The notes beneath the pieces are model-generated. The model saw only the letters and a list, made by a program, of their open reading frames with translations, searched no databases and had not been told where the DNA came from. This document shows positions 3,346 to 18,436 of a DNA stretch of 18,436 nt, piece after piece. Within the stretch, counting starts at the first letter, position 1, and the number at the start of each line of letters is the position of its first letter. The DNA comes from Candidatus Jordarchaeales archaeon. Lineage in GTDB: Archaea; Asgardarchaeota; Jordiarchaeia; Jordiarchaeales; Freyrarchaeaceae. The position numbers and the translations under genes are program-made. The stretch lies in contig JAWCFL010000032.1 of assembly GCA_038858525.1 (NCBI GenBank), forward strand, positions 1 to 18,436, written 5' to 3'.

Positions 3346-6021
3346 TTAACCTGTTGCTATACGCTTAGTGCGTCGTTCTATATAGTCGTCAATAATGGCA
3401 TCGATGTTAACGGCTTTTCCATTCCAACTCTTAGTTGGATCAGTTAGGTCTTCGCCATATTTGAACTGTATAATGCTTCCTGTTGAGTCTCTTACGGTAC
3501 CATCGTACTCTACTTTCACGTCTTGGAGGGCGTTGATTAGTCTGCGTTGTAAATATCCTGACTGTGATGTTTTGACTGCTGTGTCAACCAAACCTTCTCT
3601 TCCACCCATTGCATGGAAGAAAAATTCTATCGGGTCTAGTCCCTTTCTGTAATGCGCTGCTACAAATCCTCTTGACTTAGCGCTTAGGTCTCCTTTTTTA
3701 AAGTGTGGAAGAGTTCTCCCTTTATACCCTCTATGTATCCGTTGCCCTCTAACTGATTGTTGCCCTACGCATGCGGCCATCATTGCTAGGTTGAGAAGGG
3801 TGCCACGTGCTCCTGTTACTGCCATTATTACGGCGTGATTGTCTGGACCTAAATATTCACTGGCCACTTCGCCAGCCTTGTCTCTGACGTTGTTGAGTTC
3901 CTGCATTATTAGCATTTCAAGGCTTTCCTCTATCGTGCGCCCGGGTAGAGCCTCAAGTTCTCCTCTTCTATAGGTCTCTATTAATTCGTTAACTTTTTTC
4001 TCTCCTTCTTTTAATATTTCATTTATGCGCTGAACAGCCTCTTCGGGTATTTCTATGTCGTCTAAACCGAGGGTAAATCCCTTTTTAGTTATAAATCTGA
4101 TCAGCATACGTGTTACTGAGTCGATGAATTTCCTTGCCGCATCAGAGCCGAACTCCTTTGCTATTTTGTGGAGAAGGCTTTCAGGTACTCCTGCTCCGAA
4201 GGCGTTTTTGTCTATTACGCCTTTTTGAAGGACGCCGTCTACGACAACTACGTATGCGTCATGTGGACAATTCTCTTTAAGGCATACATCGCAATGTTTA
4301 CATGCCTTTGACTTGAAACGCGCGTTAAGCCCTTTAGGTAGGGTGAGGCTGAAGATCTGCTTCCCTGTCCAGAGGGGGGTTGGCTCTGTTATTGCTGGTG
4401 GAGGAAGTTCTGTTACACCGGCTGCGAGAGCCAGCTCACAGGCATCCTCCTTTTTGAGTAAAGTTTGCTCTTTAGTTAAAAGATAAGCAGCAGAAATGAA
4501 GTCTTGGATCCCGCCTATGATTGGCCCTCCATACCGTGGACTTAGAATATGTTCTTGGACTCTCATCAGTATGTAAGCTTCAACTCTGGCTTCCTCAGAC
4601 TGAGGCACATGGAGATTCATTTCATCTCCGTCAAAGTCAGCATTGTAGGGAGGGCAAACGCATAGGTTTAGTCTGAATGTTTTATATGGCATGACCCTGA
4701 CTTCATGAGCCATAATGCTCATTCTGTGGAGGGACGGTTGCCTGTTGAAGAGTACGATGTCTCCGTCATTGAGGTGACGTTCAACTATGCAGCCGGGGGT
4801 GAGGTCTTCAGCAACCTTGCTCCTGTTTTTGACGAATCTTAAATCGATGCGCCTACCGTCATTTCGGATAACGTAATTTGCTCCTGGATGTTCATCTGGG
4901 TCTCTCATAACTAGTTCTTTCATTTCTTCAATGTTAAGTTCAGTTACTCTTTCGGGTATAGTTAGGATTTTCGCTACTTCGATGGGGACACCTACCTCGT
5001 TTATTCCGATGTTCGGATCAGGGGATATTACTGTTCTAGCCGAGAAATCGACGCGTTTGCCTGAGAGGTTGCTTCTGAAGCGTCCTTCTTTGCCTTTCAA
5101 CCTCTGGGAAAGTGTTCTTAAAGCTCTGCCTGAACGGTGACGAGCGGGAGGTATGCCGGAGATTTCGTTATCAAAGTATGTAGTTACGTGATATTGAAGT
5201 AGCTCCCATAAGTCTTCGACGATAAGCTGGGGAGCGCCTGCTTCGATGTTTTCTCTTAAACGCTGATTTATTCGTATTATGTCGACGAGTTTATGTGTTA
5301 GATCATCTTCTGACCTAACACCGGACTCAAGTGTTATGCTTGGTCTAACACATACGGGGGGAACGGGAAGGACTGTAAGAACCATCCATTCAGGACGAGC
5401 ATACTTGGGATTTATACCGAGGAGCTTGCAATCTGTATCGGGTATGCGTTCACATCTTTCTCGTACATCGATTGGTGTAAGCCTTATAGAGCCAACTTCT
5501 GTTTCTTCGTAAAATGCGGTTGGTTTCTCTAGTCTTACCTTGCGTTGAGTTTCACCACAGTGAGGACAGGTTACAGTTCTGGACGCGCGGCGAAAAACTT
5601 CTTCAGCAACTTCGTCGCTTAGTTCGCCTGTTTCTGCTTCATGCTTCTCCATCTCTGCTAAGAAGAATTTTATTTCATCTTCTGGAAGTAGAAGTCTGTA
5701 GCAACGCCAACATGTAGCTCTTAAAACTTTATGAAGAATTTTAACAAAACCAACATGGATTACTGGACGGACGAGTTCAATGTGCCCGAAGTGTCCTATA
5801 CATTCACCTACAGGATTACCGCATAGTTTACAGCGACGTCCTGGCTCTACTGTTCCTAAGCGTTCATCCATCAGTCCTGTTTCTATTGGGGTACCGTCTT
5901 CATCATACGTATCTGGCGTGATTATTCGGGTGGCTGACATACGTCTTATTTCGTCTGGGGAAAGAACACTAAATCTTATTGAGTGAATCCTCTTGGTGAA
6001 CCTGAAAGTCACGCTACACAC
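3346..6021 (-). CDS. rpoA1: DNA-directed RNA polymerase subunit A' (N-terminal part of the split largest subunit)
   Basis: N-terminal zinc motif CKLCGNPVGECIGHFGHIEL, catalytic YNADFDGDEMNLH Mg loop, and a ~890-aa length typical of archaeal A'. The start is GTG 6021 or, more likely, GTG 6012 (GAGGTG 6 nt upstream). Confidence 0.95.
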   Translation of the reverse strand: MCSVTFRFTKRIHSIRFSVLSPDEIRRMSATRIITPDTYDEDGTPIETGLMDERLGTVEPGRRCKLCGNPVGECIGHFGHIELVRPVIHVGFVKILHKVLRATCWRCYRLLLPEDEIKFFLAEMEKHEAETGELSDEVAEEVFRRASRTVTCPHCGETQRKVRLEKPTAFYEETEVGSIRLTPIDVRERCERIPDTDCKLLGINPKYARPEWMVLTVLPVPPVCVRPSITLESGVRSEDDLTHKLVDIIRINQRLRENIEAGAPQLIVEDLWELLQYHVTTYFDNEISGIPPARHRSGRALRTLSQRLKGKEGRFRSNLSGKRVDFSARTVISPDPNIGINEVGVPIEVAKILTIPERVTELNIEEMKELVMRDPDEHPGANYVIRNDGRRIDLRFVKNRSKVAEDLTPGCIVERHLNDGDIVLFNRQPSLHRMSIMAHEVRVMPYKTFRLNLCVCPPYNADFDGDEMNLHVPQSEEARVEAYILMRVQEHILSPRYGGPIIGGIQDFISAAYLLTKEQTLLKKEDACELALAAGVTELPPPAITEPTPLWTGKQIFSLTLPKGLNARFKSKACKHCDVCLKENCPHDAYVVVVDGVLQKGVIDKNAFGAGVPESLLHKIAKEFGSDAARKFIDSVTRMLIRFITKKGFTLGLDDIEIPEEAVQRINEILKEGEKKVNELIETYRRGELEALPGRTIEESLEMLIMQELNNVRDKAGEVASEYLGPDNHAVIMAVTGARGTLLNLAMMAACVGQQSVRGQRIHRGYKGRTLPHFKKGDLSAKSRGFVAAHYRKGLDPIEFFFHAMGGREGLVDTAVKTSQSGYLQRRLINALQDVKVEYDGTVRDSTGSIIQFKYGEDLTDPTKSWNGKAVNIDAIIDDYIERRTKRIATG

Positions 6022-7208: not shown

Positions 7209-7628
7209 ATGTCTAAAGATAAGCTCTTGGCTTTAACTCAGATCTTGGAGAACATGAATAAAAAGGGAGGATTTTCGGCTAGTGTTATTTCGGGAGAGGA
7301 TGGATTGGTTGTAGCGGAAGCAAGCAGTTCTGGGAACAAACAAGTTATTGCAGCGATGGCTAGTCTAGCTCATTCGACTGCTATGAGAGTTAAAGACCAA
7401 ATAGGGCTTGGGGACTTAGAGCAGGTAACCATAGAGACAAGTGACGGGATCATAGTTTTTAAGAGTGTAGAAATCCCTAAGAGAAAATTTATACTAGCAG
7501 CCATATTACCCATCTCAGCCAAACGGAGATTTGCCGATGCAGCATCTGTTCTCCTATTTAAGGACAGAAGATATGAGCGAATAGTGGATGATGCAGTGGA
7601 GGAAGTAAAAGAAATATTCAAGGAATGA
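7209..7628 (+). CDS. Roadblock/LC7 (MglB-like) domain protein with a ~40-aa C-terminal extension
   Basis: The pattern GGFSASVISGEDGLVVAE...AAMASLAHSTAMRV...IGLGDLEQVTIETSDGIIVF...FILAAIL follows the Robl/LC7-MglB layout (G..gA.l...DGl.iA ... aAm.a ... lg.g .. v.ie...g). A profilin fold is not excluded by eye. Confidence 0.55.
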   Translation: MSKDKLLALTQILENMNKKGGFSASVISGEDGLVVAEASSSGNKQVIAAMASLAHSTAMRVKDQIGLGDLEQVTIETSDGIIVFKSVEIPKRKFILAAILPISAKRRFADAASVLLFKDRRYERIVDDAVEEVKEIFKE

Positions 7629-8783: not shown

Positions 8784-9551
8784 TTGGAGGTGTCAGAGAT
8801 TAAGAAAATAGAAATAATAGGAATTAATGGTTTGCCTCTGGTGAGGGAAGGGGACGATATAGCTAAGCTGATCGTTGAAGCAGCAAGGAAACAGGGTATC
8901 GAAATACTTAACAACGACATTATTGTGGTGGCTCAATCTATAGTTTCTAAGGCTGAAGGTATGATTGTTGACCTGTCTAAGGTGGATCCTTCTCCTTTCT
9001 CGATTACAATAAGTAGGCAGGTTGGCAAATCTCCACAGATGGTCGAGGTTATTTTGAGGGAAGCTAGAAGAATAGTTAAAATGCGGCACGTCATTATCAC
9101 GGAAACGACGCATGGTTTTATCTGCGCCAATTCAGGAGTGGATGAATCCAACGTGTCAGGTGGAGGGAAAGTCACTCTTCTTCCTCGAGATCCTGATGAG
9201 TCTGCAAGACGCATTAGGGATGGAATTTTTAAACTTACGGGTGCAGATGTTGCAGTTATAATTTCAGATACTCATGGAAGACCCTTTAGAGAGGGGGCGA
9301 TAAATGTGGCCGTGGGGGTGGCGGGACTGAAACCGGTTTGGGATAGGCGTGGAGAAAAGGACTTGTACGGATATGTTTTGCATTCAACATTTGTTGCTGT
9401 GGCTGACGAATTAGCCTCAGCTGCAGAGTTAATTATGGGTCAAGCCGATGAGGGGATTCCAGTAGTCATTATACGAGGATACCAGTATATTAAAGGTGAG
9501 GGAAGTTACAAGGATCTTTTAATGCCTCCTGAAAGAGACCTTTTCAGGTGA
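8784..9551 (+). CDS. cofE: Coenzyme F420-0:L-glutamate ligase
   Basis: GLPLVREGDDIA, VVAQSIVSKAEG, CANSGVDESN, ISDTHGRPFREG..NVAVGVAG and MGQADEGIPVVIIRG. TTG start; GTG 8790 is an alternative. Confidence 0.85.
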   Translation: MEVSEIKKIEIIGINGLPLVREGDDIAKLIVEAARKQGIEILNNDIIVVAQSIVSKAEGMIVDLSKVDPSPFSITISRQVGKSPQMVEVILREARRIVKMRHVIITETTHGFICANSGVDESNVSGGGKVTLLPRDPDESARRIRDGIFKLTGADVAVIISDTHGRPFREGAINVAVGVAGLKPVWDRRGEKDLYGYVLHSTFVAVADELASAAELIMGQADEGIPVVIIRGYQYIKGEGSYKDLLMPPERDLFR

Positions 9552-10484
9552 GTGTCATTGATCACGCTGCTAACAGGGGGCACCGGTGGGCTGAAGCTAC
9601 TTAAAGGATTTCTTGAGGTTCTTCCCCAGGAGGAAATCGCCGTTATTGTGAATACGGGTGACGATATAGAGCTTCATGGGCTTTTTATAAGTCCAGATTT
9701 GGATAGTGCAGTTTATCTGGTTGCGGGATTGCTAGATGAAGAAAGATTTTGGGGCGTGAGGGGTGACACATTTAACTGCCTTGAGATGATGAGCAAGTAT
9801 GGTTTGCCCTCTTGGTTTGCTTTAGGGGATCGTGACTTAGCAACACATATATGGAGAACTTATCTTATCAGGAACGGTTTCCAACTTTCAGAGGTTACAA
9901 AACTTATGTGTGACAAGCTTAATGTTAAAGCGAGAATTATGCCTATGACGAACGATAAAGTGCAAACGTATATAGATACTGATTTAGGCGTTCTCTCATT
10001 GCAGGAATTTTGGGTTAAATACAGAGGACAACCAAGTGTTTTTGGGGTCGAATATAGAGGAGCCGAATATGCAAGTGCGCCCCCTGAGGTTATTGATGCC
10101 TTGAGGAAGTCTGAGGCGGTTATCGTGGGACCCAGCAATCCCATCACAAGCATAGCGCCCATATTAGCTATTAGGGACATAAAAGAGACCCTTAAAGAGA
10201 TAAGCTGCAAAAAAATTGCTGTTAGTCCTATAATAGGAGGAAGAGCGGTAAGCGGGCCAGCAGCGAAGCTAATGCAAAGCTTAGGCTTAGAGGTTTCCCC
10301 GCTAGGGGTGGCATGCTTCTACAAGGAGATAATAGACGTATTGGTACTCGACAGGACAGATGCTTCATTAGTGGATGTAATAAGGTCTGTTGGTGTTATA
10401 CCATATGCTACAAACATTTTAATGATGAACGATGAGGATAGACGACGTCTCGCTCTTGAAATTATAGAGCTGGTGAGTGAATGA
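9552..10484 (+). CDS. cofD: 2-phospho-L-lactate transferase (LPPG:FO transferase)
   Basis: LTGGTGGLKLLKGF, VIVNTGDDIELHGL.ISPDLD and GPSNPITSI. The GTG start directly abuts the cofE TGA stop (9549-9551). Confidence 0.85.
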   Translation: MSLITLLTGGTGGLKLLKGFLEVLPQEEIAVIVNTGDDIELHGLFISPDLDSAVYLVAGLLDEERFWGVRGDTFNCLEMMSKYGLPSWFALGDRDLATHIWRTYLIRNGFQLSEVTKLMCDKLNVKARIMPMTNDKVQTYIDTDLGVLSLQEFWVKYRGQPSVFGVEYRGAEYASAPPEVIDALRKSEAVIVGPSNPITSIAPILAIRDIKETLKEISCKKIAVSPIIGGRAVSGPAAKLMQSLGLEVSPLGVACFYKEIIDVLVLDRTDASLVDVIRSVGVIPYATNILMMNDEDRRRLALEIIELVSE

Positions 10485-11272
10485 GAACTATTTTGAAGCG
10501 GCGAGTTATACTTGCAGCTATGGCAGGAATATGTGATGGTGATTTTTGCTTCCGAGCAGCAAAATCAGGAGCAGGAATGGTGACACTTGGAGGGTTAAAT
10601 TTCGATGAAGGAACAGTTTTGGCTGGCGAAATGATAAGAAGAAGGGGGCGTAAGGAGTTTGATGTGAAGCTTGACTCGCTCGAGAGGTTTCTTAGGGAAG
10701 AGGTAAGTAAAGCTTTGAAGGGAGGCGCCCCTGTTGCTATTAATGTGCGGGCAGCAACTTTGAGGGGTATTCTTTTCGCTGGTAATTTAGTATCAAAAAG
10801 CGGGGCTACAGCACTGGAGATAGATGCGCACTGTCGGCAACCCGAGATGATGGCGGTAGGAGCGGGACAAGCACTTTTAAATAGATTAGAAACGCTTTCG
10901 GAGTGGATAATGTGTCTTAAGGAATCTTTTAATGTAAAAGTCATTCTTAAGTGGAGAGGTAACGTGGTGGATGATTTAACTGTAGCAAAGCTGGCTGAGA
11001 AAGCTGGTGCTGACGCAATACATATAGACGCTATGAAGCAAGGAGTGGAATGTGGAGATTTAGAGTTAATCAGGAAAATTTCTGAAAACGTAAATGTTTT
11101 CTTGATAGGTAATAACTCTGTTAGGGACGTTAATAGTGCCATCGAAATGTTAAATTCTGGTGCTGATGCAGTTTCTATTGCTCGAGCAACGCTAAATGAC
11201 CCTTCAGTAGTGGGAAAAATAGCGTTAGGTGTCGAAGAAAAAATGAAACAAAAAGAAAACTTAAAATTTTAG
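10481..11272 (+). CDS. Dus-like FMN-binding TIM-barrel oxidoreductase (archaeal NifR3/Dus-related family), function unknown
   Basis: LAAMAGICDGDFCFR..GAGMV matches the Dus N-terminus (aPMagvtD..fR). EIDAHCRQPE....GAGQALL matches the Dus IDiN.GCP....G.GaaLl segment, with the Cys retained. GADAIHID ... IGNNSV ... GADAVSIARATLNDPS matches the C-terminal half. Its ATG overlaps the cofD stop by 4 nt (ATGA). Confidence 0.65.
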   Translation: MRTILKRRVILAAMAGICDGDFCFRAAKSGAGMVTLGGLNFDEGTVLAGEMIRRRGRKEFDVKLDSLERFLREEVSKALKGGAPVAINVRAATLRGILFAGNLVSKSGATALEIDAHCRQPEMMAVGAGQALLNRLETLSEWIMCLKESFNVKVILKWRGNVVDDLTVAKLAEKAGADAIHIDAMKQGVECGDLELIRKISENVNVFLIGNNSVRDVNSAIEMLNSGADAVSIARATLNDPSVVGKIALGVEEKMKQKENLKF

Positions 11273-11309: not shown

Positions 11310-11744
11310 TTAGGAAGAATTATTTGTACTTTTCTTAGGCGTCATCGTACCGGATACTATCTTTGAGATTATTTCCTTTTGCGCCGCTCTTACTGCACTA
11401 GAAAAATTGAAACCACGAGTATCCATTCCCAGTTCATCGATGACGTCTCCGTAACTGTTCTCGTTTACTATTTTTATAAGAATTTCAGTAATGTCGTAAC
11501 GTTCTCCATGGAAACGCACCGTGATCTTATAAGCTTCCCAGTCAACTTCAGCACCATAAATGTCTCTTTGAATGTTTATTGCGTCCGCCACGGTCAATTT
11601 AGGATTAGAACTCAGTATTTCTTCAATTGAAGGTATTTTCACACCTTCAAGAGAAAGTAGGATACGCTGAATAAGCATACCCATAAGCCAGCAACGATTA
11701 AATCGGCCTTTCCAAGGCTTATTAGACAAACACCCACTTCCCAA
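11310..11744 (-). CDS. Hypothetical protein (124-144 aa depending on start)
   Basis: ORF of plausible composition, but I recognise no motif. Start options are TTG 11744 (~24 nt after an ATAAATAAAG box, possibly leaderless) or ATG 11684 (MGMLIQRILL...). Confidence 0.45.
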   Translation of the reverse strand: MGSGCLSNKPWKGRFNRCWLMGMLIQRILLSLEGVKIPSIEEILSSNPKLTVADAINIQRDIYGAEVDWEAYKITVRFHGERYDITEILIKIVNENSYGDVIDELGMDTRGFNFSSAVRAAQKEIISKIVSGTMTPKKSTNNSS

Positions 11745-11876: not shown

Positions 11877-12056
11877 TTAAAAAATTCCGTTAAAAAGGTT
11901 GTTCAGGTAATTGATTATGTTTGTTGCTATACTTCCTGACCAGTTAAAAACGCCGAACATTATGTTTAGCATTATGGCTAAACCTAAAATTGATAGGCCA
12001 ATTAAGATGGCTTCTTCTACGATAGGAGATCCTTCCTCGTTCTTTATTAATTCCAA
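11877..12056 (-). CDS. Flp/Epd-type mini-pilin-like protein with a class III (type IV prepilin) signal peptide, 59 aa
   Basis: Hand translation: (TTG)ELIKNEEG|SPIVEEAILIGLSILGLAIMLNIMFGVFNWSGSIATNIINYLNNLFNGIF*. A short charged leader ends in Gly, Glu sits at +5 after the putative cleavage site, and a ~20-aa hydrophobic helix follows, mirroring Caulobacter PilA DESG|ATAIEYGLIVALIAVVIV. GGAGGG lies 8 nt upstream of the TTG. It is one codon below the 60-aa cut-off of the ORF track. Confidence 0.5.
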   Translation of the reverse strand: MELIKNEEGSPIVEEAILIGLSILGLAIMLNIMFGVFNWSGSIATNIINYLNNLFNGIF

Positions 12057-12307
12057 ATCAAAAACCCTCCATGTATCTTCAAGCGTTAATAGTTAAGAAA
12101 AATATTTAAACACCACAGTTGTTGCGGCGTACTATCATTTAACAAAATCATCAAGCTAAAATGAAAAAGACATATTTTTGTCAACTATATTGTTGATAAA
12201 AATGATGTTCAAAAAATTAAAATAGAAGTATAGCACAAATAATATTCTGAAAAATGGAAAAAGTTGAAGTAATTCTTGAAAAATGAAAATGAAGGGGACG
12301 TGGGAAA

Positions 12308-13453
12308 GTGACATATGAGGAAGAGATGATCGCTGCAAAGCCCCTTGTGTTGGATAATGGAACCGGGTTAACTAAGAACGGGTTTGCAGGAGAGGACCAA
12401 CCTCGCTCCGTATGGCCAACTTGTATAGGATATCCTAAGTATACATCAATAATGACGGACGTAGAACACCATACGAGGGAGTATTACATAGGGGAGGAAG
12501 CACTTAACCTGAGAGGAGTTCTTAGGCTGGTTTATCCTATAGAGCACGGCGTGGTGACAGACTGGGACGCCATGGAGAAGATTTGGCATTACACGTTCTT
12601 CAATGACTTGAGAGTAGATCCCTCAGAGCACCCTATTCTCCTAACTGAGCCACCGTTAAACCCGCGTGAAAACAGAGAAAAAATGGCTGAAATAATGTTT
12701 GAAACGTTTAACGCGCCAGCTGTTTATGTTGCAATGCAAGCAGTCCTTTCACTTTATGCGTCAGGAAGAACAACCGGACTTGTAGTAGACTCAGGAGATG
12801 GAGTAACGCACATTGTGCCAATTTACGAAGGATTCGCGTTAACGCATGCGATAACGAGGATAGATCTCGCAGGAAGAGACATAACTGAGTATTTAAGGAG
12901 GCTCTTAAGGCAACGAGGTTACAGTTTCGTCTCAACAGCTGAAAAAGAAATAGTTAGAGACATAAAGGAGAAGCTCTGTTATGTGGCTTTAGACCCTGAA
13001 AAGGAACTTAAGCTTGCTGAGAAAGTTTCAGGAATAGAAAAGACATACGTGTTGCCAGACGGAGAGACCATTACTGTCGGCGCTGAAAGATTCCTAGCAC
13101 CGGAGGTTTTCTTTAACCCAGGAGTTATCGGGCTAGACTCACCACCACTGGACGAGGTTATAGTTGACGCTGTCAGAAAATGCGACGTTGACTTAAGAAG
13201 AGAGCTTTACGGCAACATAGTTCTCTCGGGAGGATCAACAATGTTTCCGGGGCTAAGAGAAAGATTGCACAAGGAGTTATCAGAGCTCGTCCCAGAAAAT
13301 GTCGAAATTAAGATAATAGCGCCTCCAGAAAGACAGTACAGTGTTTGGATTGGAGGGTCAATACTAGCTTCTCTAAGAACATTCCAGAAAATGTGGGTTA
13401 CAAGAAAGGAATATCAAGAAGGAGGAGCTGCAGTTATTCACAGATGCTTCTAA
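12308..13453 (+). CDS. Eukaryote-type actin (Asgard 'lokiactin'-like)
   Basis: Near-verbatim actin signatures run the full length: [115 protein letters not shown]...[53 protein letters not shown] and [33 protein letters not shown]...IHRCF*. The start is GTG 12308 or ATG 12326. Confidence 0.93.
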
Positions 13454-13454
13454 G

Positions 13455-13480
13455 TTTTGTACTTTCCTTTTCCTTTTTTA
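13455..13480 (+). terminator. T-tract terminator region after actin (TTTT ... TTTTTT)
   Basis: Oligo-T runs sit immediately downstream of the TAA stop. Archaeal RNA polymerase terminates at such tracts. Confidence 0.4.
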
Positions 13481-13606
13481 TGATTACATTTTCTTGCGAG
13501 ACTTACTAAAGATAATATAAAGGAGAATGTTTGCGAATTAGGACGAAACACGTAAGGTTTTTCTTAAATTCTCTGGAAGATATCTCTCAAAAAGTGCAAA
13601 GGATTT

Positions 13607-15229
13607 TTGGGTGATTTTTTGGTTAAGGCTTTAAAAGAGTATAATTTAGTTAGAAAAAATCACCGTAAAGTAGATTTAAAATTTGCACTTTGTTATCCTA
13701 GTACATATTCTGTTGGTATGTCTTCTTTGGGGTTTCGTTTAATTTACACACTTATAAATATAAGGGAGAATGTCGCGTGTGAGAGGGTTTTCTATGTTCC
13801 AGAAGAGAGACCTAGAAGCGTTGAGTCTGGCTTAGAGTTAAGTGAGTTTGACGTAGTTGGTTTCTCTTTACAATACGAGGAAGATTACGTGAACTTAGTG
13901 AAAATGCTTCTTAGTTCAGGGATACCCGTCTGGAGAAGTGAAAGAGACGAGAAAAACCCATTAATTGTCGCAGGAGGAGTGTGTGCAATCGAAAATCCAA
14001 TGCCATTATCAGACTTCATTGATGTATTCTTAATAGGAGATGGGGAAGCATTAATAGAACAACTAATAGATATATGTGTTGAGGAGAGAGGGAAACACGC
14101 ACGGATGGAGGCTTTATCAAAAATAGACGGCTTTTATGTGCCTGGGTTAAATGATGGGAAAGTTAAGAGAGTATGGTGTAAATCCATTGAGGACATTTTT
14201 TGTCCAACTATGCAGGTAATTCCAGTTAAAGAAGAAAAAGGACTTACACCCGTTTTTGGCCGGTCATTCCTTTTAGAGATCGCTAGGGGGTGCGAGAGGG
14301 GATGCAGATTTTGTCTGATAGGTTTCTGCGGCAGGCCTAGACGTATTAGAAGCGAAAGAAGACTTAGACAGCTTATGGAAGAAGGAATAAAGCAAAGTGG
14401 GGTAAGAAAGGTTACTCTGATTGCACCTTCAATTTCAGGATTAAAAATAGTTGATTTATGTTGGGAAGCAGTAAATGCCGGCTTAGAAATTTCATTGCCT
14501 TCTTTAAGTATTGATGCTGTCACCGATGATTTGCTTGATGCAATAGTAGAAGGAGGACAACGAACAGTTACTATAGCTCCAGAGGCAGGAACAGAAAACA
14601 TGAGAATAAAGATAAACAAGCCTTTTTCGGACGAGGAAATAATCGCTACGGCAGAGAAAATAGAGGAACGAGGACTTAGCCTGAAAGCGTATTTCATTAT
14701 TGGGCTTCCTTATGAAAAAGAAGAGGATGTGGACGCCATTGCTAAACTTATCGATAGAATATCCAAAAGTGGTGGGAGGAAGTTAAAGGTTAGCGTAAAC
14801 CCGTTTGTCCCAAAGCCTCATACACCTTTTTCCTGGGTGCCTCAAAATTCACTTCAAACTCTTAGATATAAAAGGGCACGAATACAAAAACTCCTGAGAG
14901 GTAAGAGGATTAATCTTGAAGGAATGGATCTAAGAAAAGCATTTATTGAGGCATTTTTGTCTTTGGGGGGAAGCGAAATAAGTCGTATAATAGAGTTGGC
15001 GGCACGTTATGGTGGAGGACTTGGTGGCTGGAGGAGAGCGTTCAAGGAGAGCAAATTCAAAGCGGAGCACATATATAAGTTTAGGAGCCCTGATGAAGAG
15101 CAACCTTGGGAGATAGTTGATGTAGGTGTTAACAAACAGTTTTTAATTAAAGAGTGGGAAAGAGCCATTGATGGCGTCCAGACGCCTCCTTACAGTCACT
15201 GTAAAGAATGCATGATTTGCGACTACTAA
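13607..15229 (+). CDS. Radical SAM enzyme with an N-terminal B12-binding-like domain (TIGR03960-like uncharacterised family)
   Basis: CX3CX2C cluster motif in LLEIARGCERGCRFCLIGF. The N-terminus ALCYPSTYSVGMSSLGFRLIYTLIN....CERVF resembles the YevGMSnlGl.iLY..lN...cERvF signature of that family. The start is TTG 13607 or TTG 13619. Confidence 0.75.
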   Translation: MGDFLVKALKEYNLVRKNHRKVDLKFALCYPSTYSVGMSSLGFRLIYTLINIRENVACERVFYVPEERPRSVESGLELSEFDVVGFSLQYEEDYVNLVKMLLSSGIPVWRSERDEKNPLIVAGGVCAIENPMPLSDFIDVFLIGDGEALIEQLIDICVEERGKHARMEALSKIDGFYVPGLNDGKVKRVWCKSIEDIFCPTMQVIPVKEEKGLTPVFGRSFLLEIARGCERGCRFCLIGFCGRPRRIRSERRLRQLMEEGIKQSGVRKVTLIAPSISGLKIVDLCWEAVNAGLEISLPSLSIDAVTDDLLDAIVEGGQRTVTIAPEAGTENMRIKINKPFSDEEIIATAEKIEERGLSLKAYFIIGLPYEKEEDVDAIAKLIDRISKSGGRKLKVSVNPFVPKPHTPFSWVPQNSLQTLRYKRARIQKLLRGKRINLEGMDLRKAFIEAFLSLGGSEISRIIELAARYGGGLGGWRRAFKESKFKAEHIYKFRSPDEEQPWEIVDVGVNKQFLIKEWERAIDGVQTPPYSHCKECMICDY

Positions 15230-16989: not shown

Positions 16990-17157
16990 GTGCGAAAAGA
17001 ATGTCCAAAATGTAGAGGAAAGGGAAAAGTTGAATGTTCTGAGTGCGGAGGGAGGGGAAAGTATGACCCCTATAGCGGGCTCGTATGCAGGACGTGCTGG
17101 GGGACAGGACGTATAATGTGTGATTACTGTGATGGTGAAGGGACTGTAGTAGAGTAG
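16990..17157 (+). CDS. DnaJ-type cysteine-rich zinc-finger mini-protein (four CxxCxGxG repeats), 55 aa
   Basis: Hand translation: (GTG)RKECPKCRGKGKVECSECGGRGKYDPYSGLVCRTCWGTGRIMCDYCDGEGTVVE*. It has four perfect CxxCxGxG units. The start is 12 nt after the GTPase stop, with a G-rich SD-like GGTAGGGCGGGG upstream. It is below the 60-aa track cut-off. Confidence 0.75.
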   Translation: MRKECPKCRGKGKVECSECGGRGKYDPYSGLVCRTCWGTGRIMCDYCDGEGTVVE

Positions 17158-17293: not shown

Positions 17294-18436
17294 GTGGTGG
17301 CGAAGATAGTTATTATCGGGGCCGGGGCTGCGGGAACAACAGCAGGAATATGGGCAAGGAAAACAGATAGGAAGGCGGAGATAACATTAGTGACAAAGGA
17401 GAAGTATCCGGAGTATTCTCGGTGCGGTCTTCCATACACCATATCAAAGCATATTTCAGAGTTTACAAACCTCATAACGCATGACGCTGGATGGTATTCG
17501 AGTTTTGGAAAAATGAATTTACTACTAGGAACAGAAGCAACAAACATAAACGTAAAAGATAGAACAGTAGCAATTAAAAACTTGCAGAGCGGCGAAGAAA
17601 AAACGCTTGAATATGATGCGCTAGTAATAGCTACGGGCTCTAGACCGGCTTTTCCACCTATAAAGGGAATAGAAGGAAAAAGTAATGTTTACTCGTTAAG
17701 AACTATAGATGACGCAATGGCAATTCATGAGGCGGCAAAGAAAAGTAAAAGGTGTGTTGTTGTAGGCGCAGGATTAATTGGTGTAGAGACAACGGAGGCG
17801 CTAGTTGAGCTTGGAGTAGAGGTAACCCTCGTTGAGTTCTTGCCAAGCGTTCTTCCATTGATGATTGACGCCGACATGGCGGACATGGTAGAGGACGCGC
17901 TCAAAGAGCATGGGGTAAAAGTATACACGAATACTGCCGTGAGCGAGCTAATAGGTGAAACAAGGGCGGAGAAAGTCGTCTTAAAGAATAGAAATACTGG
18001 AGAGGAAGAAAGAATACCTACGGATTTCGTTGTGATATCTGCAGGAGTGAGGCCTAATACTGAGTTGGCGGTAAAAGCGGGAGTAGCTTTGGGAAGCACC
18101 AAGTATATAAAAGTCGATTCGCGGGCGCGAACCAATATTGAGGGAATATACGCAGCGGGGGACTGTACAGAATATGTTGATTTCGTAACAGGCCAACCTG
18201 TAGCAATAGGCATGGGAACAATAGCTGTGAGGCAAGGCAAGGTAGCAGGAATAAACGCAGCCGGTGGGGACGCTGAAATGCCTAAGGGTGTATTGCTTAC
18301 AAGGATAACGAAGGTTTTTGGGGTGGAAGTAGCAGCGGTAGGCCCTATTACAGACTCATTAGAAAAAACAGGAATAAAGCCGATAGTGGGCAAGATGACG
18401 TATTCGAGTAAGCCAGAGTATATGCCGGGCGGAAAA
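17294..18436 (+). CDS. FAD-dependent pyridine nucleotide-disulfide oxidoreductase, NADH oxidase / CoA-disulfide reductase family (3' end truncated by the window edge)
   Basis: I translated 381 codons with no stop from GTG 17294 (GGGGGT SD 5 nt upstream) to the window end. Motifs: KIVIIGAGAAG (FAD Rossmann), YSRCGLPY (redox-active Cys), ATGSRP, VVVGAGLIGVE (NAD Rossmann) and IYAAGDC. The ORF track lacks it because there is no stop codon. The minus ORFs 17278..17547 and 17725..18393 are its antisense shadows. Confidence 0.85.
   Translation, partial: MVAKIVIIGAGAAGTTAGIWARKTDRKAEITLVTKEKYPEYSRCGLPYTISKHISEFTNLITHDAGWYSSFGKMNLLLGTEATNINVKDRTVAIKNLQSGEEKTLEYDALVIATGSRPAFPPIKGIEGKSNVYSLRTIDDAMAIHEAAKKSKRCVVVGAGLIGVETTEALVELGVEVTLVEFLPSVLPLMIDADMADMVEDALKEHGVKVYTNTAVSELIGETRAEKVVLKNRNTGEEERIPTDFVVISAGVRPNTELAVKAGVALGSTKYIKVDSRARTNIEGIYAAGDCTEYVDFVTGQPVAIGMGTIAVRQGKVAGINAAGGDAEMPKGVLLTRITKVFGVEVAAVGPITDSLEKTGIKPIVGKMTYSSKPEYMPGGK

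Follow-up and report, generated by a model that had tools for sequence, protein, structure and literature searches.

A predicted full-length lokiactin encoded in a Jordarchaeales genome

The DNA analyzed here (hereafter the window) is a stretch of 18,436 nucleotides from a Candidatus Jordarchaeales archaeon (GenBank assembly GCA_038858525.1, contig JAWCFL010000032.1). The gene at positions 12308–13453 on its forward strand very probably encodes a full-length and intact eukaryote-like actin, a lokiactin, that is native to the Jordarchaeales genome. Both the lokiactin family and the exact 381-aa sequence are already known and present in public databases: a collection of 5.8 billion proteins contains an identical 381-aa protein (P0005), which GenBank lists under the name "actin family protein [Candidatus Jordarchaeales archaeon]".

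The gene product and its family

The coding sequence begins with GTG at 12308 and extends over 381 codons to a TAA stop at 13451–13453. The initial annotation of the window had described a 381-aa open reading frame (ORF) carrying actin signature blocks from DNGTG to IHRCF, and this is exactly what 12308–13453 (+) contains, with DNGTG at residues 16–20 and a C-terminus that reads ...VIHRCF. The Pfam Actin profile (PF00022; cut-off 27) matches residues 11–379 with 468 bits (E 2.8e-140), covering profile positions 5–407 of 410. By computation, the product is 62% identical (229/370) to human beta-actin and 59–62% identical to the eukaryotic actins in databases, so that the estimate made earlier by eye (well over half of the positions) was sound.

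The closest relatives of the protein are actins of Asgard archaea. Of the proteins with a solved structure, HC1 actin (PDB 9wc4) scores highest, with 661 bits, 73% identity and no gaps over 374 residues, compared with 549–566 bits for eukaryotic actins. HC1 is a cultured strain of Hodarchaeales, Ca. Margulisarchaeum peptidophilum (bioRxiv 10.1101/2025.02.26.640444; bioRxiv 10.1101/2025.11.30.690169). In the protein collection, the closest proteins are Jordarchaeales, Freyarchaeota, Atabey-, Njord-, Hel-, Hod- and Heimdallarchaeial actins (77–100% identity); after the identical protein, the next-closest Asgard actins belong to several classes and are 77–96% identical, and those of other classes (Atabey-, Njord-, Hel-, Hod- and Heimdallarchaeia) are 77–84% identical. 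A scan of GTDB species representatives (one genome per species) returned 383 stretches that encode actin relatives. The best 80 of these 383 are 76–97% identical, and those among them with a phylum label are almost all Promethearchaeati, many others being labeled just 'uncultured archaeon'. Among these Promethearchaeati is Promethearchaeum syntrophicum MK-D1 (78% identity).

A neighbor-joining (NJ) tree was computed from 40 sequences (376 columns, Kimura distances, 200 bootstraps), with no named outgroup from the actin-related proteins (Arps), crenactin or MreB. The tree separates the gene from the eukaryotic actins, to which it does not belong, and is silent on deep relationships. All 22 Asgard actins, including the query, form one cluster and the conventional eukaryotic actins form a separate cluster. 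Within the Asgard cluster, the query falls inside a subclade of Jord- and Freyarchaeal actins with 94.5% bootstrap support. A phylogeny had been proposed as a check in the initial annotation, and the placement with Asgard actins and apart from eukaryotic ones agrees with what it had expected.

The residues that bind and hydrolyze ATP in actin are conserved in the Jordarchaeales protein, as mapped through an alignment of 13 sequences (A1) that includes 11 Asgard actins aligned with the query. The P1 loop reads D16-N-G-T-G-L-T-K23 (D11-N-G-S-G-M-C-K18 in eukaryotic actin), and the P2 loop, D161-S-G-D-G-V-T-H168, is identical to that of eukaryotic actin. The catalytic residues Q137 and H161 of actin correspond to Q144 and H168, and the methyl-histidine site H73 corresponds to H80. 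Four adenosine contacts, K213, E214, G301 and G302, are retained as K220, E221, G308 and G309, with F313 at the position of Y306 and Q343 at that of K336. In the hydrophobic cleft, 11 of the 12 residues are identical, the remaining one being a change of Y169 to phenylalanine. Identity to beta-actin amounts to 70% in subdomain 1, 32% in subdomain 2, 62% in subdomain 3 and 61% in subdomain 4. Like human ACTB and yeast Act1, the protein belongs to PF00022, has ATP loops that are identical or conservatively changed along with the Q137, H161 and H73 equivalents, and possesses the hydrophobic target-binding cleft, an acidic N-terminus and a C-terminal C-F. Unlike them, it has a divergent subdomain 2 with a 2-residue insertion in the DNase I-binding loop (D-loop), carries glutamine in place of K336 and lacks K373; its gene has no introns, starts with GTG, is flanked by archaeal signals and groups in a separate tree cluster.

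Membership in the lokiactins is further indicated by insertions and deletions. Relative to beta-actin, the protein has two additional residues in the D-loop and lacks one residue ahead of the C-terminal CF. Both changes are common to all 11 aligned Asgard actins, and the gaps of the protein relative to other Asgard actins are confined to the N-terminus. Two peptides were used to raise lokiactin-specific antibodies in Ca. Lokiarchaeum ossiferum (PMC9834061), and these peptides match the Jordarchaeales actin at 12/15 and 13/15 positions. The protein is of the same length class as the lokiactin of Ca. L. ossiferum (UYP47028.1) and HC1 actin, shares their indels and peptides and, like both, is encoded by an Asgard genome. 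It differs from these two in that Jordarchaeales represent a class without a cultured member, in which the orthologue is known from sequence alone. In sum, a full-length PF00022 match, intact loops, identity to Asgard actins, clustering, indels and a native Asgard genome place the protein with the lokiactins, and its identity of 62%, separate cluster and archaeal contig set it apart from the eukaryotic actins.

Within the Asgard actins, the protein could in principle be an Arp-like paralogue and not a lokiactin orthologue. Asgard genomes hold several actin-fold paralogues, with one lokiactin and three Arp-like proteins in Ca. L. ossiferum (PMC9834061), and the NJ tree holds no named Arp sequences, Arp2/3 included. 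However, identities of 76–84% across Asgard classes fit the account of lokiactin as the actin group with the strongest conservation (PMC9834061). The shared D-loop and C-terminal indels, the restriction of gaps to the N-terminus and the matches to the antibody peptides also argue against a paralogue, as do the listed PDB matches, all 60 of which are actins and none an Arp. The distance to be expected of a paralogue is illustrated by a divergent environmental relative (P0166), which is 55% identical and carries a 12-aa D-loop insertion. A search of 1.84 billion representatives returned no named Arps and mostly unnamed or fused eukaryotic proteins; among ten representatives checked by cluster, the named ones are divergent eukaryotic actins or Arp-T2-like and the others are unnamed environmental proteins. 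An Arp-like identity is thus very unlikely.

The start codon of the lokiactin gene has been called differently in GenBank, where a 375-aa version (P0009), labeled "Candidatus Freyarchaeota archaeon", begins at Met7. The 381-aa model with the GTG start is preferred here because the sister-species loci L009 and L010 have an ATG aligned with the GTG at 12308, because the next Y-E-E-E codons are kept (12308–12328 region) and because a G-rich stretch upstream is conserved as well. This putative Shine–Dalgarno-like stretch, AAGGGGACGTGGGA (12292–12305, +), is located 3–16 nucleotides before the GTG, and an equivalent AAGGGGAGATGGGAA precedes the ATG at the same aligned position in L009 and L010. The acidic N-terminus of the 381-aa form (EEE) resembles that of eukaryotic actin (DDD). 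The practical value of this point is modest and consists of correcting the choice of start codon from 375 toward 381 aa.

Genomic setting and origin of the gene

The surroundings of the actin gene are archaeal. The initial annotation had assigned the lineage to Asgard archaea and had pointed to archaeal neighbors on the contig; the lineage is right and can be given more precisely as class Jordarchaeia, order Jordarchaeales (kingdom Promethearchaeati), and RpoA' (rpoA1, 1453 bits, 891 aa), CofC, CofE, CofD and the archaea-specific DUF2095 are all present. The identical actin is found on 12 contigs from independent GenBank metagenome-assembled genomes (MAGs). Six of the 12 (up to 470 kb) were inspected, and all six are 99.8–100% identical to the window at the DNA level and have the same flanks. 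In a second species, the same flanking genes are kept with DNA that is just 67–78% identical, whereas the actin is 96% identical. None of the other proteins among the 15 compared between these two species is conserved as well as the actin (96% vs 49–93%), and this indicates strong purifying selection on the actin. Its GC content (0.449) and the GC content at third codon positions (GC3, 0.415) lie inside the range of the neighboring genes.

Putative expression signals flank the gene on both sides. Nowhere in the 560-bp intergenic region is conservation between the two species, the DNA of which is otherwise ~70–77% identical, higher than in an A/T-rich block at 12178–12236 (+), with the TATA-like TTAAAATA at 12217–12224 and GATAAAAAT at 12194–12202. 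This block likely serves the actin gene as an archaeal promoter. Oligo-T tracts (TTTT, TTTCCTTTTCCTTTTTT and TTTTCTT; 13455–13495, +) follow immediately on the stop codon and resemble an archaeal terminator. With promoter-like and terminator-like flanks of its own, the gene appears to be monocistronic.

That the gene was acquired horizontally in recent times, be it from a eukaryote or from Asgard archaea of another class, is as improbable as an Arp-like identity. The neighborhood is not conserved beyond the genus: the flanks are shared within the genus (L009–L011) and differ in Atabeyarchaeia, in other Jord- and Freyarchaeal genomes and in the other GTDB loci compared (79 others). Nevertheless, gene order is normally lost from one archaeal class to another, which is no evidence of transfer, synteny is kept within the genus despite ~25% DNA divergence, and the actin groups with Jord- and Freyarchaeal actins and has a native composition. 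Actins of high similarity to eukaryotic actin are encoded by a few other prokaryotes, namely, the Microcystis aeruginosa actin and BARP of Haliangium ochraceum, which are rare bacterial actins acquired from eukaryotes. In contrast to these, the Jordarchaeales actin belongs to a phylum-wide, vertically inherited clade and is not an isolated transfer.

Less probable still is that the actin represents eukaryotic DNA, brought in by contamination or fused to an archaeal contig by a chimeric assembly join. The window does come from a metagenome-type assembly and its actin is 62% identical to a eukaryotic one. However, eukaryotic actins reach only 59–62% compared with 76–100% for Asgard actins, the ORF is uninterrupted, its GC and GC3 match those of the neighbors, and the upstream and downstream signals are archaeal in style. 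Because the same junctions recur in six separate MAG assemblies and in a different species, a chimeric join and eukaryotic contamination are excluded, in line with the earlier judgment that the gene was no contaminant. The remaining alternative, that the protein belongs to a prokaryotic actin-fold family (crenactin, MreB, ParM or MamK), can practically be discarded, since its weak cross-matches all stay far below the curated cut-offs (NCBIfam crenactin NF053560, 50.8 bits vs 630 and only over residues 51–272; MamK, 48.3 bits vs 400; BeeR, 51.3 bits vs 530; Pfam MreB_Mbl, 23.8 bits vs 27), compared with 468 bits for Actin against a cut-off of 27. Syringactin (NF040575) likewise gives a partial match (residues 281–379; 111 bits vs 300). 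A similarity beyond that of crenactin and MreB relatives had been anticipated from the letters, and the best matches are indeed Asgard and eukaryotic actins. The likeness to crenactin of Thermoproteota is that of another archaeal actin-fold ATPase forming F-actin-like filaments (PMC9834061), a family of which the Jordarchaeales actin is not a member.

The initial annotation also held that such actins are known only from Asgard archaea. That lokiactins occur throughout the Asgard archaea stands, but the statement is slightly too strong in view of the rare bacterial actins mentioned above and of MAGs without an Asgard label. Lokiactin genes with 76–97% identity are present in four such MAGs (L011, L027, L031 and L087), the labels being 'Thermoproteota archaeon S9B3_HD70', 'Candidatus Deferrimicrobium sp.', 'Candidatus Bathyarchaeota archaeon Bin_245' and 'Candidatus Nanopelagicaceae bacterium'. 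L011 has the entire neighborhood of the window. These are probably mislabeled or misbinned Asgard contigs.

An actin-linked conserved operon was considered and rejected, as the neighborhood is lost beyond the genus, and there is no cytoskeletal operon at the actin locus. Among 19 ORFs and called genes of the window (the plausible genes plus a few antisense ORFs, a part of the ORF list), no Pfam match to profilin, gelsolin, cofilin or a second actin-fold protein was obtained, and none to profilin, gelsolin or cofilin appeared in the unannotated small ORFs (139, 59 and 55 aa) at Pfam E-values up to 5. The actin gene is not clustered with cytoskeletal regulators, as had been noted before for profilin, gelsolin and Arp.

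Several points weigh against the reading of the gene as a lokiactin with the function proposed below. The NJ node that unites the whole Asgard cluster has a bootstrap of 42.5%, in a quick tree without the named outgroups. A regulator gene (profilin, gelsolin or Arp) is absent from the window, to which the scan extended. Q343 stands in place of actin K336. With an identity to beta-actin of no more than 32% across subdomain 2, the D-loop region, filament contacts may differ in detail from those of actin. AlphaFold2 run on the 13-sequence alignment gave an unusable model (mean predicted local distance difference test [pLDDT] 33.7; predicted template modeling score [pTM] 0.23), and the fold is predicted from sequence identity to solved actins only. 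A role of the actin in Jordarchaeales would follow by homology from that in relatives.

Neighboring genes and a flavoprotein linked to cofD

Upstream of the actin, the window encodes an APH-family kinase-like protein, an adenosine phosphosulfate (APS) kinase-like protein, phosphoribosyl pyrophosphate (PRPP) synthase, RpoA', HisG, Roadblock/LC7, CofC, CofE, CofD and a Dus-like flavin mononucleotide (FMN) protein. Downstream follow a B12-binding radical SAM protein of the TIGR03960 type, the gene of which starts at 13607, DUF2095, a YchF-related GTPase, a 55-aa zinc ribbon and a pyridine-nucleotide disulfide oxidoreductase. Neither an Rfam nor a tRNA scan returned a match in the window.

The genes immediately upstream of the actin are two small unannotated ones on the reverse strand, at 11310–11744 (139 aa) and 11877–12056 (59 aa). 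The 139-aa protein has no recognized domain and has homologues in five Jordarchaeales-type clusters only; the 59-aa protein is hydrophobic and probably located in the membrane. Both genes are divergent from the actin, keep their position in the sister species despite an inverted cof block and are absent from other Asgard actin loci. On a weaker reading that draws on context only, these genus-restricted proteins could be lineage-specific partners of actin. The inversion concerns the cofE–cofD–Dus-like block (8784–11272), which is inverted as a unit relative to L009 (4416–6891), with cofC and the genes on the actin side unmoved.

A stand-alone Roadblock/LC7 (MglB-like) protein of 139 aa, a type of eukaryotic signature protein, is encoded at 7209–7628 (+) and is 81% conserved in the sister species; no small GTPase gene lies next to it in the window. 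An Arf/Ras/Roc-type small GTPase is found ~8 kb from the actin in L001 (20385–20834; Jordarchaeales, downstream and outside the window) and in L007 (1–292; Atabeyarchaeia). An Arf GTPase co-precipitates with lokiactin according to a preprint (bioRxiv 10.1101/2025.11.30.690169). Given the many small GTPases in Asgard genomes, the proximity of GTPase and actin genes is probably a coincidence.

In archaea, rpoB, rpoA' and rpoA'' usually form an operon. In the window, rpoA' (3346–6021, −) stands by itself, with hisG upstream, an oppositely oriented PRPP synthase gene downstream and neither rpoB nor rpoA''. The sister species likewise has hisG on that side of rpoA', and its locus is cut before the other side. 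At the other end of the window, the 55-aa CxxC zinc ribbon (16990–17157, +) directly follows the YchF-related GTPase gene, resembles BSD2/DnaJ-CXXCXGXG (27 bits) and is 64% identical in the sister species. The gene for the pyridine-nucleotide disulfide oxidoreductase (17297–18436, +) continues beyond the window. L002 and L004 carry an intact copy, L001 and L003 a split one (~100–450 bp differ), and these differences in L001 and L003 are probably assembly or scaffolding differences between MAGs.

A further observation concerns the synthesis of cofactor F420. The Dus-like protein (263 aa, 10481–11272, +) is an FMN TIM-barrel protein of the MJ0144 family that scores 200.5 bits with TIGR00736 (cut-off 218.7). 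The start of its gene overlaps the stop of cofD as ATGA, which makes the two translationally coupled. Stand-alone members of the MJ0144 family follow cofD on the same strand, directly or one gene further on, in 6/6 cases inspected. In the window, the order is cofE–cofD–X, where X is the MJ0144-family gene. In Lokiarchaeia (L091, 4001–4765), it is cofE–cofD–X–cofC, and cofD–X recurs with a 7-nt overlap in another member of Promethearchaeota (L094, 4001–4765) and with a 4-nt overlap in Methanofastidiosia (L095, 4001–4726). In Methanomicrobiales (L092, 4001–4750), the order is cofE–cofD–GTP cyclohydrolase III–X, and an unlabeled contig (L096, 4001–4726) has the same gene order as L092. The Methanosarcina version is fused to "methanogenesis marker 9" and has no cof linkage.

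An H-C-x-Q motif, which is invariant, and a G-N-N-S motif are present in the MJ0144 family and are compatible with a reaction of the Dus/DHOD type, in which a C=C bond in conjugation with a carbonyl or carboxylate is reduced. Archaea do not possess the FbiB reductase domain, and a separate enzyme, "CofX", is expected and not yet identified (Bashiri et al., 2019, PMC6450877). Later work favors 2-phospho-L-lactate as the archaeal substrate, the source of which is also unknown (PMC8764529; PMC8498797). A literature search found no paper that names MJ0144 and none that identifies CofX. Because of the linkage to cofD across distant archaea, the motifs and the missing archaeal enzyme, the MJ0144-family flavoprotein is hypothesized from gene context to be a candidate for the missing archaeal F420 step, that is, the reduction of dehydro-F420-0, EPPG (enolpyruvyl-diphospho-5'-guanosine) or phosphoenolpyruvate (PEP); in the last case, it would be a source of 2-phospho-L-lactate. 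This side lead is potentially more valuable than the actin finding.

Proposed function and significance

By homology, the Jordarchaeales actin would function as a filament-forming ATPase. The monomer would bind ATP-Mg in the cleft between its two halves, using the P1 loop (D16–K23), the P2 loop (D161–H168) and adenosine contacts at K220, E221, G308, G309 and F313. Monomers would then polymerize head to tail into a two-stranded F-actin-like filament, in which the D-loop of one subunit would enter the conserved hydrophobic cleft of the next, and ATP would be hydrolyzed with the help of Q144 and H168. Filament turnover would be controlled by profilins and gelsolins whose genes lie in other parts of the genome, and the filaments would serve as a scaffold for membrane protrusions and for the shape of the cell, as in cultured Loki- and Hodarchaeales. 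In these relatives, lokiactin filaments have been seen in cell bodies and protrusions (PMC9834061; bioRxiv 10.1101/2025.02.26.640444), the dynamics of protrusions depend on lokiactin (bioRxiv 10.1101/2025.11.30.690169), and the filaments are probably regulated by profilins and gelsolins (PMC9834061; bioRxiv 10.1101/2025.02.26.640444; bioRxiv 10.1101/2025.11.30.690169). For Jordarchaeales, polymerization, regulation and cellular role are drawn by analogy with these organisms.

Adaptation to heat is another property that the protein might have. Jordarchaeia are predicted to be (hyper)thermophilic (PMC10307638), and the IVYWREL content of the window proteins gives a crude growth temperature estimate of ~86 °C, from a sample of just 4,941 residues. 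The IVYWREL and charged-residue content of the actin itself is not distinct from that of other lokiactins. In the tree set, all lokiactins, including those of mesophilic lineages, have much higher IVYWREL values (0.45–0.48) than eukaryotic actins (0.37–0.40), and their charged fraction is also much higher. It seems unlikely that the gene encodes a naturally heat-adapted lokiactin; on that reading, the true form would be the 381-aa GTG-start protein with a conserved acidic MxYEEE N-terminus omitted by one GenBank model. If true, it might provide an unusually stable and tractable near-eukaryotic actin for biochemistry and structure work.

The finding adds nothing new to the family, since homologues have already been imaged and solved structurally and the exact sequence is deposited and annotated; it documents an orthologue from a thermophile lineage. 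According to the literature, lokiactin occurs in every class of Asgard archaea and is conserved more strongly than any other actin group (PMC9834061). Its presence is a reliable lineage marker, by which the contig is confirmed as Asgard and specifically as Jordarchaeales. As one of the key eukaryotic signature proteins, lokiactin connects the Asgard archaea with the way in which the eukaryotic cytoskeleton arose.

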